Positions 1-6,000 of a stretch of DNA of 64,000 bases are shown here, piece by piece (the stretch's first letter is position 1; the number at the start of each line of letters is the position of its first letter). Location: the NCBI GenBank assembly GCA_000002445.1, contig CP000068.1, positions 1,376,001 through 1,440,000 on the forward strand. The letters are read 5' to 3'. Made by a program: the position numbers. The DNA is from Trypanosoma brucei. Its lineage: Eukaryota.

Positions 1-3000
1 ATGTGTTAAGTTAGTTTATGCGTATTCGCTTTAATTCCAAATCAAATAATTGTTGTTTACAATCCAACATATATATATATAGGTCGATCCCCCTTTTGTC
101 TCTTAGTGGTATTTTGTATGATTTGTTAGTTTACGTCGGGGGGAAAAATGCACCGGCTTGCAACAGTTCCGTTTTTGACGCTGATATTGCTTGTAGTATG
201 CGGTGGATCGAAGGCTTCTGTGCAAATTTCATCCGCTTCTCCGGGGTGCGACGGATATTGGACCTACACCGGTGTCAAGAAAACGTGCTGGACTCAGAAT
301 ATGGGAACAACCAAACGGAGCGGTGTGAGTCCGAATCCCCCTTCGGTTTCGCGGCACCGTAGCCAGCAACCATCAAGTGGAGCCGGCGTCGGTGACCAGC
401 AGCAAGAAACGCAGGGGAGTGTTTCATCGAGTTCAACCACTTCAAGAGGAACTAACCAACTGGGTTCGGACGGTGAAGACACCTTTCCGAAAGAGGATGT
501 AAAACAAGTTTATGGGTCAGCCGGCACTCTGAGCATGAATCCGATCGCGCAGCCGTCCGGCAGTCCCAGAGAGCCGACAGATGCAACCCCGGTGGTGGAC
601 CGCAAAGAAGAGGGACAAGTGGATCAGAGAGGGTTGGAATCTGGATCCGCAAAACAACAAAACACGACAAACGGCAACGGGGAAGAAGAAAATGGCGGGA
701 AAGGGAGGGGTTCAGGAGATCATGCCACAGGTCACGATCGCGGGGGTATGGCGCAGGGCGTAGTTTCGATGTCTGGGCAAGGAAGTGCGCAGAGAGTGGA
801 AACTGTAGCGGAACAACCAGTCAAGAACAAAGAAGATGATATTCCAGGAGAGAATGTTAAAGGGCCCGGCAGCAGCCATGTAGTCTCGACACCGGAGCGG
901 CGAAATACACTGGAGACGGTAACAGATAATGGGGATCAGCAAAAATCTGGAGAAAGCAATGCTCAAGGGGAGAACAGCGGCTCGTGTAAAGGGCGTGCGG
1001 TAATACTCCCTGTAATATTAATCCTCATGTACTCTTAAAAATCATTACCGCAATTCCATGGAATACTGTGAAAACGTCTATTGAGATTAACACCGCATGA
1101 TGAGGAGGAAGAGTTGAAAGTTGGAAACTAGCTTGCAACTGCTTTCAATGAAGATCATGTGGATGGAACGTTGTGGAGAGACAAGATAAGAGGATCGAAT
1201 AACACTAATGTAATCATAAGTAGCGTACATGAGTAAAACCAGTAACTGGAATGGAGGAAAAGCAGAATAAAGTTGTTAGCGCAAGAAGCAAAAAATGTTC
1301 ACATTAAGAACGACACGAGGCAAGGTGAGAAACAGGCGACAACCTTAACAATATTATTATTAATTAAACAAGGAAATTTAACTTCAAAAGTATTAAGGAC
1401 ATCGTAGCATTGAATTTTTTTTTTAGGGAACGTGATAAGAGCCACTTCACACCCTGGAGTAAACTTGATACCAGAGAGACTAACGAAATCGTAGCGTCAC
1501 GTTATGGGGGGGGGGGCACTGAATACTTTGACGGCCAAACCTGATATCATATCGGTAACCCTAAGATATGCTTAACTGATGCGAATAACAGAAAACATGC
1601 ATAAAGGATATGACCGACGAATAATCAGTGAACGAGCGAATTGCACAAAATAAGGATATGTGAAGACTTTAAATCAAACGGGAGAAGATAATGAAAGCTG
1701 GAAGATATGAAGGAGAGAATTAACAAACATAACTTATTTTTTAAAAAGGCGCCCTTACATATATTTTCTGTGTTTGTTTTTTGCCGCTTTATCGTCGCAG
1801 CACATTGAATTAAATCAGGAGCGCATCCTTGCTGGAAAAAGCATTAAAAGTTCGTATACTTTTAAGGGAATAATAATAATAAACAATGCCTTAACGAAGA
1901 AACTGGCAAATACGAAGCAAAGGCTCTTTATTTTGGTTGTTAACTTCATGATGTGCGCAATTCCACAGGCGTATGTTGTTATTGCGGATCTGGAAACTGA
2001 TATTTATCCTCTCTGTTTTATTTTTCCATATTGAGTTTTGAATTTTTTTAACCATTTATTGTCTTCATTATGCGCTGTTGTACTGTTTCGTAACTTTGGT
2101 AATGAGTTGAATATGAAGAGCAACTACATTACTTTAACCAAGTTCTCAATATGAGCAATCGGAGTTTTCCGTAAGGTAGCGTCGCACGACTCAGTGGCAT
2201 GTTGCGCCATTTTCTTCCGAGTCAGAGAACAACAACGAGACTGGTCGATGGAGTTTAAATAGATTGGATGACACATGATAGTGCTGTGCGCACAGGACAC
2301 AGGTGATTCAATAAAATTGAAGCTTATTGAGTGCGTGGGAACAGACAGAGAAGCATTAAGGACATTCCGCTTGGGATTGTTGCAGGCGAGGATGAGTTAC
2401 GGAACAGGGGCATGGTTGCTCTTAACCTTCGTAGGTGATTAGGAAACGACAAGTGTGAAGTCAACAAAACGGCTTCGTGGCAGAAGTGGTGACTCAAGAA
2501 AGCGGCAAAAATGCTGTGGAGACGCGGTTGAGCACATTTGCCACTATAGCTAACATGTGTGCAATAAAATGCTATCTGACGCTCAGTCAAAGGTCGGACA
2601 TCCAGTAGACCAACCGACAAATTGAACCTTCCAAGCGCATTTTACACATCACTGGTTGAAGAATTAGCGTACTTGGACCTCAAACATGGATGCGCGTTAC
2701 ATGTTGATGGCGCCAAAAAATCCACAGTCAGCGGCGGGGAACAAAGTAAGGACCTCTCTAACCGCGTTTGGCGGAAAACCAATACGTTGCACAAAGGGGA
2801 AAAGTACACAATGAGAACCGTTGCGAGCTACGGCGCTTTGTGCCGTGATATCCAAACCTAGTGTCAACAGGGTGGGTTTATCATAGTGACCTTTATTGTT
2901 GGTCACCCGCCTCCGCAGTTGCTGCCATGGTATCTGGCTCCACCCTTTTCCACTCTCGTTTCAACGGAACTTATGGAATCTGCGGTTCGCTGCTTCTCTG

Positions 3001-6000
3001 CACGTCTCACTGACACCTTGGTTAACACCAGTAATTCCATCCTTTAATAAATGCACATTTGAATATATACACATTTCCCCCTTTCATGATAGGCGTGCGG
3101 ACACTCCTCAGCGAGCGTTAGAACTTGACTTGTATGTTGGTGCATTATTCCTGGTTTGACCTGTGCCCATGAAATCATCTTTGCCTTGTATTTGATGGCT
3201 GTTGTCTACTGAGTAGGTGAGGCATGCGTGTCGGGTGCGTGTGCGAAACCAAAGCACAAGAAACATGCAGCACATTTAATGCCCCCAGTTTATGCATGCC
3301 CCATGCATGGCGGGGAGCCAGTGGCGTTAAATGTGCTGCATGTTTCTTGTGCTTTCATTTGTGCGAGCATTTATTGATGAGAATGTGAACACTCAATAGC
3401 GTATTTGGCGGCAGTTGCGACGCCGGGTGGTCAAGCTGTCCAATGAGTAGGACGCTAACACAAGATGAATGAGAAGTCAATTAGAGACATTTGAGGCGGG
3501 TGTGTAAGGCTAACCCTAAGGGTGAGTAAATGAAAGTGGATGGAGGGAACGAGCAGATGGGTTGGAGGTGGTCGCGGGAGATGCTTCGAGCTGGAGACCT
3601 TCGTCACCTAGAGTGGGGACACGACCAGAAGCAGTTCGTCGTGAGCGACAAAAACTTTAGTTGTGTCGCAAATTCAGGAGATAGCTTACCCACTTTCATC
3701 TAGAATTGCAGAATAGTTGAAGGCGGTTGCAGGACCGTCACCGAAGGATACACCGAGGCAAGGCTGACATTTCTAACCCTTTGCCAACAGTGACAACAAA
3801 ACAAATATTGAAATGAAGCCCGTCGACCCGTAAGTGTTTCGGGGGATTTGGTGAAACAAGAGGGAACAACGTAGGAGATTTGGTGGATGATCAGGGGCAT
3901 CTAATTGAGGAAACAGGGCGCTTTTGTCGTTTGTATATCTCGCAGCAGTGTTTGTTACGTTATTTTGCGTAGTGCTTTGAGAGGTGTTTATCTTTTATTG
4001 TTATTATTATGACGCGCGTCTGGTTGCTACTAATTTTGGATGGTGACGTATGTTTTTCTGGGCTTGTATGTCTTTGCATAGGGAATCGTAGATAATGAAG
4101 ATCACTATCGTGGAATTGGTCATTTTGTTATTTTTCGCAGTTAACATTGATGGGGAAGGAGGCGCTTGTATGTTGTTGGCAGATGTCGAGAATGATGTAA
4201 GTTTAGATGAATCTGTATGCTACCTCAGCTGTCTTTCGAGTGCTCTAAGCAAATTATACACTGATGGGGAGCGGAAAATGTTTGTGAATGAGGAGGTATA
4301 CGCAAATGCGTCTCGTATATTGGATGATATGGAATGGAAATCAGGTGAAAGCGCAACGTATTTGAGCGTAATTAGTGGTGTAATGGAAGGGAAACATGAT
4401 AAATTGGAAAAACTTATATCTTATGGAAGTGCAATGGGAGACCTTGTAGCTAAGGTTGGTGGATTATTTGTTGGGGTTAATGAAAGTGTAAGGGCAGTGA
4501 GGAATGCAGTACCCGACGCCCTCATAACAGCGAATAAATACTATACAGCCGCCGCCGAGGTTGAAAGGACTGTGTGGGACGATGTTAAAGGGATGGAGGC
4601 TCCGAGGATGTCGGCTGAATGCAGTGATCCAGTGTTCACAAATGTTGCAGGGTATAAGGTCATATGTCCAGATTACGTATGTCCATTCAACCATGGTGTG
4701 ACCGCAGCGGCCTTTCGCAAGTATAAAAATGAATGCCTTGAGATAACTGTGTATTACCCTAATAAGTGCAGAGCCCAAGGATTACCACGAGGCAAATTAT
4801 ACGGAAACGGTATTGTAAAGAATTTGACTACACTTTTGGAGTGGCGTGACGACCACAGTTATTTCCAACTGACACTGAAAATACGGCAGATGCTCGATCC
4901 TCTCATCGTACCTTTTGCTTCCGGGTTTCCACCATCTGTCCTCGTCGGTACACTGTCCAACATCACTTCTCTATATTCCCACTTTAACGAGGTCTACAGC
5001 AACTTCACTTCACTGCTCCTCGGCACCAATACCCCTGAAAATGTAAACAGGACTAATTTTCCGATCTAACAAACACGTATACATTTCCTCCTTCCTATCA
5101 ATCTGTTTCTTTCGCATGTTTTTGTGCGAGTTCGCACACACCCATGTGCTCAATAATCGTCTTTTTGTATTGACATGTTTTGTTTCCATAGAAAATAGTC
5201 CAAACCTTCTGCGGTGGTAATGTTAAAATATCAGAAATTGTCCTATGTGTAGTTTGCGTGTACGAAGCAAAGTTCTTATTACGTACCTTTCAGAGCTTTT
5301 CTTTTGTAAGAGTTGCAAGAGTCTGTGCGATATGAAAGTGAAGCGCTGGTGGGGATAGTGACTCCACGGTTGCTGCGTTGCGACGTGGCCTCATGAGCCC
5401 ATAGCGTGGATGCCATTCGGCTGTGTGGTCGTTCGATGAGAAAGACAGCAATCATATGGTTGATACCTTCTTTTATTTTTCCGGCGCCATTCCTGGCTGT
5501 TTTCAAAGGATACTCATTGCAGACGCAGCGGCTTTTAGTGACGTTGTCAAAACACGTTGAAGACGGTGCGTTTGCGAGGTGACCTTAAGGGAGGGGGGGG
5601 GTAGAGAACGGTGGGTGTGGTGTGTGAATGGAACTTGGAGTGTCTTTTCAGTGAGGAAATAATAGCATGATGTGTAACGCCTAGTGCGTTGTGTGAAGCA
5701 AAATCCTTTTTAGGGGATAGATGGCCGTTGTCTTTTTCATGAAGTGGAGGTATTTTAGAATAGCGAAGGTTGTATGAAATTATACGTCACGTTTGTGCGT
5801 TTTTTCTTTCTTTTCGATTATATGAAAAAGGTGGTTATTACTTTCATTGCTATTGAGTGAGAATATTTTAGAGGCGATACCATTGGCTACAAGTAAGAGC
5901 GGTATCGAATATTGGAGGAGCAGCGCAGCGCAACGAGCAAATGTCGATTCTCACTGGGCCATTTGTGACGCGAGGTATCTAGGTGCATATGGAGAGGTGT

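Follow-up and report, generated by a model that had tools for sequence, protein, structure and literature searches.

ESAG9-EQ and an ESAG1-family gene at the border of a VSG array on chromosome 5 of Trypanosoma brucei TREU927

The stretch of DNA analysed here (64,000 nucleotides of contig CP000068.1, hereafter the window) belongs to chromosome 5 of Trypanosoma brucei TREU927, and at its left edge two open reading frames (ORFs), each with an ATG start, lie on the plus strand ahead of an array of variant surface glycoprotein (VSG) genes: ORF1 at 148..1038 (296 aa) and ORF2 at 4095..5069 (324 aa). A previous reading of this DNA, made from the sequence alone (the sequence-only reading), had given coordinates and strand for both that are exact in the window, and had found no trypanosome family by name to which ORF1 could be assigned. 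Protein searches reveal that ORF1 is 100% identical to XP_845130.1/AAZ11571.1 and ORF2 is 100% identical to XP_845131.1/AAZ11572.1, with XP_845130.1 and XP_845131.1 being neighbouring accessions from the same 1,608,198-bp record. In length and strand ORF1 agrees with Tb927.5.4620, a forward gene of 891 nt at Tb927_05:1433243-1434133 (Rico et al. 2017, supplementary table), which is an ESAG9 copy named ESAG9-EQ (Rico et al. 2017), and the length of ORF2, 975 nt, is that of the entry “Tb927.5.4630, ESAG1, putative, 975” (Mulindwa et al. 2015, Table S3); Tb927.5.4630 was not found by name in a full-text literature search, its ID having come from that supplementary table. The offset derived from Tb927.5.4620 sets window position 1 at chr5:1,433,096 in Tb927_05 numbering, with the window corresponding to chr5:1,433,096-1,497,095 of TREU927 and the ESAG1 gene to chr5:1,437,190-1,438,164. 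The same offset puts Tb927.5.4640 (1440268-1440954, reverse) exactly on the minus-strand ORF at 7173-7859, providing independent confirmation of the window placement. ORF1 is Tb927.5.4620 (ESAG9-EQ) and ORF2 is Tb927.5.4630, of the ESAG1 family; both are already known genes.

The coding sequence of ESAG9-EQ (148..1038, plus strand) has the overall layout proposed for it by the sequence-only reading, in which a signal peptide and a glycosylphosphatidylinositol (GPI)-type tail were placed around a core rich in Gly, Ser, Gln and Glu. The N-terminus is hydrophobic at about residues 4-23, which gives a signal peptide at about nt 148-216, and the C-terminal tail is hydrophobic over the 13 residues 284-296 (nt 997-1035), with the small residues S277-G278-S279 just before it; the core between them contains 14.7% G, 13.3% S, 9.0% Q and 8.1% E, and Cys residues number four in ORF1. 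No Pfam match was found for ORF1, as the ESAG9 family has no Pfam model, and its identity was therefore taken from protein searches. A HMMER search of 1.84 billion representative proteins yielded 13 matches at E<=0.001, nine of them ESAG9 entries from T. b. brucei, T. b. gambiense and T. equiperdum, and the rest comprising a 148-aa gambiense remnant (“T. brucei spp.-specific protein”), the query itself, one expression-site-associated protein and one protein that was not looked up by name. ORF1 is 85% identical over its full length to CAQ57416, which comes from BES11 and is the sole ESAG9 known from the Lister 427 expression sites, and 82% identical, also over its full length, to Q99047, the original ESAG9 from T. 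equiperdum (Florent et al. 1991), while full ESAG9 paralogues show 28-38% identity with E-values of 1e-12 to 6e-19.

Alignment of 15 ESAG9 sequences shows that M1, L12, C34, W38 and C47 are nearly invariant, and that the family pattern consists of a signal peptide, the C34/W38/C47 residues and a variable core, followed in nearly every full-length member by a short hydrophobic tail. The signal peptide, C34/W38/C47 and the tail VILPVILILMYS of the BES11 and T. equiperdum proteins are the same or nearly the same in ORF1, although the T. equiperdum entry is annotated with an N-terminus 25 aa longer. The ESAG9 of BES11 follows a VSG-related gene, as does ORF1 on chr5, but ORF1, unlike its BES11 counterpart, is located outside a telomeric expression site, about 170 kb from the chromosome end. 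In an AlphaFold2 model built with the family alignment, the mean predicted local distance difference test score (pLDDT) of ORF1 is 41, with residues 50-285 disordered; the only structured parts predicted are helices at the two ends and a short hairpin over 38-47. Published tabulation of the cell-surface phylome lists Fam2 (ESAG9) as a T. brucei-specific family of 15 members with a signal peptide, a GPI signal and zero transmembrane (TM) helices (Jackson et al. 2013), and the papers that we retrieved describe ESAG9 products, at the family level only, as “potentially secreted” or say that they “appear to be secreted”. Judged by these matches and the conserved residues, ORF1 belongs to the ESAG9 family (cell-surface phylome Fam2), and the failure to place it in any nameable family has been superseded. 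ESAG9 proteins are also said to be N-glycosylated, and to be shed if co-expressed with another family member.

The second gene (4095..5069, plus strand; Tb927.5.4630, XP_845131.1) matches the Pfam ESAG1 profile PF03238 with E=4.4e-105 and a score of 350.6 bits (gathering cut-off 27), and the match extends over positions 1-226 of the 227 in the profile. The sequence-only reading did not recognise ESAG1 here, but its description of a 324-aa secreted, Cys-containing glycoprotein with six sequons holds: the N-terminus is the only hydrophobic segment and would serve as a signal peptide, there is no C-terminal anchor signal, Cys residues number eight, and there are exactly six sequons, at N71, N129, N243, N289, N303 and N318. 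The ESAG1 relatives found in a single-sequence search, and again with a 38-sequence profile, number 43; every one comes from the T. brucei group, and the profile search recovered none beyond it, in agreement with published work that regards ESAG1 as lacking homologues beyond T. brucei. Residues C42, C46, C176, C191 and C196 are invariant in an alignment of 38 ESAG1 members. Like other members of the family, such as the VSG expression-site-associated proteins 221A and 117A, ORF2 falls into the 323-331 aa length class and has a signal peptide, the invariant Cys residues and no anchor, which corresponds to the listing of Fam8 (ESAG1; 17 members) as having a signal peptide, no GPI signal and zero TM helices (Jackson et al. 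2013). Its identity to expression-site copies is 49-57%, and its nearest relatives are found on T. b. gambiense chr5 (68%) and in T. equiperdum (63%). We also considered whether these three might form a special divergent ESAG1 clade, and rejected it: no exclusive clade was recovered, and the divergence of ORF2 is typical of a family with a mean pairwise identity of 59%. At about 170 kb from the chromosome end, ORF2 does not reside in a telomeric VSG expression site and is, therefore, strictly an ESAG1-related (GRESAG1-type) copy; ESAG1-family copies outside expression sites are common.

In the AlphaFold2 model of ORF2 (pLDDT 76, predicted template modelling score 0.67; residues scoring above 90 number more than 110), residues 37-96, 101-166 and 280-309 are helical, and 190-262 form a small subdomain that includes strands. 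A Foldseek search of the PDB gave as top matches HpHbR, Tb427.07.360 (metacyclic invariant surface protein), GARP, the factor H receptor and ISG65, all of them trypanosome surface proteins, with E-values from 7e-3 to 0.1, while a profile of 38 ESAG1s found no sequence match at E<=1 among all PDB sequences. The ORF2 model has two helices of about 60 residues and a third long helix, and the structures that it matched are those of HpHbR (4x0j/4e40), the factor H receptor (FHR; 6xz6), GARP (2y44), ISG65 (7pi6) and Tb427.07.360 (5vtl); in contrast to receptors of the HpHbR/FHR/GARP/ISG65 type, ESAG1 has neither a GPI nor a TM anchor. It is plausible that ORF2 forms an elongated three-helix bundle resembling those of trypanosome surface receptors, although in a predicted model this is a structural resemblance and not proof of homology. 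Such a receptor-like ESAG1 fold would be a mildly new point beyond the existing annotation.

Transcription of both genes is documented in published data. In microarrays, Tb927.5.4620 is 2.06-fold up in stumpy versus slender forms, along with all eight ESAG9 genes, and upon silencing of REG9.1 by RNA interference it goes up with a logFC of 1.99 (Rico et al. 2017, supplementary table), both the stumpy enrichment and the REG9.1 effect being published values for the gene ID Tb927.5.4620. Levels of ESAG9-EQ mRNA are low in slender, cultured bloodstream and procyclic forms, and rise in stumpy forms. In cultured bloodstream forms Tb927.5.4620 has raw poly(A)+ counts of 118 and 108, and in procyclic forms of 31 and 47. 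A T. b. rhodesiense line gave raw poly(A)+ counts of 1393-1940 for Tb927.5.4620 and 1465-3363 for Tb927.5.4630, and for fresh isolates the respective ranges are 102-2019 and 222-2432. Repression of ESAG9-EQ in slender forms is conferred by about 1 kb past the stop codon and by the RNA-binding protein REG9.1, and Northern blots and reporter assays with the ESAG9-EQ downstream sequence have been published; the literature also describes a 34-nt 3'UTR element. The fragment that served as the selection reporter consists of the 1057 nt that come after the Tb927.5.4620 stop codon; in the window it is the “long 3'UTR” (untranslated region) plus intergenic sequence at 1039..2095 on the plus strand, repressive in slender forms in the published reporter assays (Rico et al. 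2017). On the other side of the gene, a pyrimidine tract TCCCCCTTTT occupies 88-97 and the AG that comes after it, at 105-106, lies 41 nt before the ESAG9 ATG, and this plus-strand segment (88..106), as read from the sequence, is a candidate trans-splice acceptor region for ESAG9-EQ.

We compared the locus with its counterparts in other members of the T. brucei group. Chromosome 5 of T. b. gambiense DAL972 (FN554968.1, 1,308,178-1,329,152) keeps the same order, with a VSG-related gene followed by ESAG9, ESAG1 and a retroposon block, and identity to the window is 81% over 1-2315 (the ESAG9 block), about 70% in ESAG1 and 89-93% in the retroposon block, with no clear counterpart for 2316-4084. 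Such uneven brucei-gambiense divergence over 1-9351 suggests patchwise replacement by paralogues. The gambiense ESAG9 (positions 4962-5843 of the compared FN554968.1 segment) is 90% identical in the coding region, but has lost 2 bp at window position 219 and gained 2 bp at 583, which puts codons from about 25 to 146 out of frame and restores the frame thereafter; the product annotated at this locus is the 148-aa “T. brucei spp.-specific protein”, and the copy is either a pseudogene or the result of an assembly error. On T. equiperdum contig CZPT02001744.1 (2509-12887), an ESAG1 gene (327 aa) is flanked by two ESAG9 genes (256 aa each), all in one orientation and at a spacing of about 4.4 kb. 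Linkage of ESAG9 to ESAG1 is, overall, recurrent, being found on TREU927 chr5, at the syntenic gambiense locus and on the T. equiperdum contig. The sequence-only reading had been prepared to discard both ORFs as spurious if transcripts and conservation were lacking; published transcripts exist for both, as do homologues in Trypanozoon and synteny with gambiense, and the ORFs therefore stand. Between ESAG9 and ESAG1 there is a long inverted repeat at 3246..3360, with 38-nt arms that are 92% complementary and a 39-nt spacer (minimum free energy -80.1 kcal/mol, z = -10.6); its arm sequence occurs nowhere else in the window, and the syntenic locus of T. b. gambiense lacks it.

ESAG9 and ESAG1 are the final two genes of a plus-strand run that stops about 170 kb short of the right end of the chromosome. 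Upstream of the window this run includes Tb927.5.4540 and Tb927.5.4550 (GRESAG4) and Tb927.5.4560 (guanine deaminase), followed, still on the plus strand, by Tb927.5.4590 (a rab pseudogene), Tb927.5.4600 (ESAG3) and Tb927.5.4610 (a frameshifted VSG-related pseudogene), and a published Bdf3 chromatin site is found at 1,429,099-1,429,499, about 3.6 kb ahead of the window. Beyond ESAG1, the orientation-switch gap at 5070..6983 separates the last plus-strand gene from the first minus-strand feature. Its proximal part, 5070-6124, is the 3' flank of ESAG1, in common with the T. b. gambiense copy at about 70%, and from 6377 onwards it lies within a block conserved at 89%. We found no ingi-like nucleotide or protein similarity within 5070-6980 and no Rfam match in 1-12000, and the two longest ORFs of the gap, at 5847-6095 (plus strand) and 6035-6331 (minus strand), matched nothing in Pfam.

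Adjacent to the gap, a degenerate ingi-type retroposon occupies 6984..8691 on the minus strand, with its CCCTGG head at 8691 and its poly(A) tail visible as poly(T) at 6984-6993. The segment at 8479-8690 is 80% identical at the nucleotide level to the ingi heads at 53502-53732 and 29155-29386, and the retroposon shows 56% amino acid identity to the ingi N-terminus. Tb927.5.4640 (“hypothetical protein, conserved”, 7173-7859, minus strand) sits within this retroposon and displays weak similarity to the zinc-finger C-terminus of ingi (E=0.006). A second degenerate ingi-related (DIRE-like) fragment, at 8612..9321 on the minus strand, aligns with residues 320-579 of the product of the second ingi ORF (tblastn identity 30-34%, E=1e-12 to 6e-14), and is 93% conserved with T. 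b. gambiense. The first VSG of the array (10095..11636, minus strand) is a split pseudogene, since its VSG_B (10998-11636) and Trypan_glycop_C (10095-10985) domains are on separate ORFs. The opposition in orientation between the two ORFs and every VSG, noted from the sequence alone, holds throughout the window, where the eight VSG-like blocks, spanning 10098-49954, all belong to the minus strand and the plus strand has none. The change in gene orientation at the border between ESAG1 and the VSG array, which the sequence-only reading had put at about 5070-6980 with a retroelement inside, is real, but the retroelement debris (6984-9321, minus strand) adjoins the gap and is not within it. In T. 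brucei, convergent strand-switch regions are in general sites of transcription termination, so that termination by RNA polymerase II would be expected at this switch.

Several other features were seen farther into the array. An array of 70-bp-type repeats (period 74 and multiples) at 22870-24261 lies upstream of the minus-strand VSG at 20074-21534, and is overlapped by a published Bdf3 site (chr5:1455886-1456286, window 22791-23191). Three (TAT)n runs of 60-80 copies are located between VSG genes, at 27500-27739, 37935-38118 and 48058-48236, and one of these runs partly coincides with another listed Bdf3 site (window 37700-38100). The plus strand carries a near full-length ingi from 53502 to about 58700, its frame broken into ORFs at 53480-55768, 55771-57597 and 57849-58499, as well as a separate ingi/RIME-type 5' head at 29155-29386.

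With high confidence, then, we read the left edge of the window as Tb927.5.4620/ESAG9-EQ and Tb927.5.4630/ESAG1, the last two genes of a plus-strand run, with ingi-type debris between this run and a silent minus-strand VSG array. Several points weigh against this interpretation, or parts of it. GPI anchoring of ESAG9-EQ was judged by eye and from a published table at the family level. The lower identity of ESAG9 and ESAG1 to gambiense, as compared with that of the retroposon block, means that the genes may not be strict gambiense orthologues, and the frameshifts in the gambiense ESAG9 imply that this gene is dispensable in at least one subspecies. It should also be kept in mind that the read counts come from other strains and were mapped to TREU927, and that their authors warn that ESAG9 reads are not unique.

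Of the alternatives, the one that survives best, although we consider it unlikely, is that ESAG9-EQ and ESAG1 are decaying relics of an expression-site-like segment copied into the subtelomere, which have stayed open and are transcribed as passengers of the polycistron, making no functional contribution. Their company speaks for such an origin, as the neighbours include the rab pseudogene and the frameshifted VSG-related gene, and the pairing of a VSG-related gene with ESAG9 is repeated in BES11 of Lister 427; so do the frameshifted state of the gambiense ESAG9 copy and the high divergence from the gambiense locus. Decay, however, is difficult to reconcile with two intact ORFs that retain all family-invariant residues, with ORF2 spanning essentially the whole Pfam ESAG1 profile, and passenger transcription is at odds with the specific regulation of the ESAG9-EQ transcript, the control signals of which are in its own flanking sequence.

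Far less probable is the idea that ORF1 represents a mucin-like or MASP-like T. brucei family not named before. ESAG9 does resemble the MASPs and mucins of T. cruzi in having conserved terminal signal regions, here of the signal-peptide and GPI type, around a variable, disordered core rich in Ser, Gly and Thr, and published work has put forward a distant kinship of ESAG9 with MASP. The likeness does not extend to other properties: no tandem repeats were detected in 148-1038, even at a TRF score of 30, Thr and Pro are modest (S+T 20.6%, P 5.7%), and there is a single sequon, N172. No T. cruzi MASP or mucin relative was found at E<=0.001 among the 1.84 billion representatives, and the status of a new family is refuted by the exact database entry for ORF1 and by relatives that are named ESAG9. 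The label “mucin-like”, given to ORF1 by the sequence-only reading, is consequently apt only loosely, for a disordered stalk between conserved secretory signals. That one or both ORFs are chance open frames can be dismissed. The purine-rich, T-poor composition of ORF1 (17.9% T) does make stop codons rarer, but when each ORF was shuffled 20,000 times at constant mononucleotide composition, not one shuffle was free of in-frame stops, the five remaining frames of either ORF contain 5-29 stops, and homologues in three other Trypanozoon genomes and published transcript data likewise refute it; both are real genes for secretory-pathway proteins, far beyond chance.

As regards function, ESAG9-EQ would enter the endoplasmic reticulum by means of its signal peptide and expose a small two-Cys N-terminal motif followed by a largely disordered ectodomain rich in Gly, Ser, Gln and Glu, and the protein would then be either GPI-anchored through its short hydrophobic tail or released. 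ESAG1, for its part, is predicted to be an N-glycosylated, disulphide-containing protein that bears a signal peptide and lacks a membrane anchor. The putative role considered most likely for both is interaction with factors of the host or the vector, whether on the cell surface, inside the flagellar pocket or once the proteins are released.

The genes have been annotated since the 2005 genome, and the discovery value of their identification is low, although the reading of features from raw sequence was accurate even where the family names were missed, and ESAG9-EQ serves in several published studies as a stumpy-form marker and reporter. Three small leads go further than the annotation, namely the predicted fold of ESAG1, which is receptor-like, the recurrent linkage of ESAG9 and ESAG1, and the strong inverted repeat between them. 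Since the two genes are adjacent in the same orientation in TREU927, gambiense and T. equiperdum, one may speculate, by analogy with the anchorless ESAG7 and the GPI-anchored ESAG6, that an anchorless ESAG1 with a receptor-type three-helix bundle works together with its GPI-signal-bearing neighbour ESAG9, a partnership to which we would assign only a slim chance. If true, it would mean that ESAG1 was derived from the common trypanosome surface-receptor fold, in contrast to the de novo origin that has been suggested for it.

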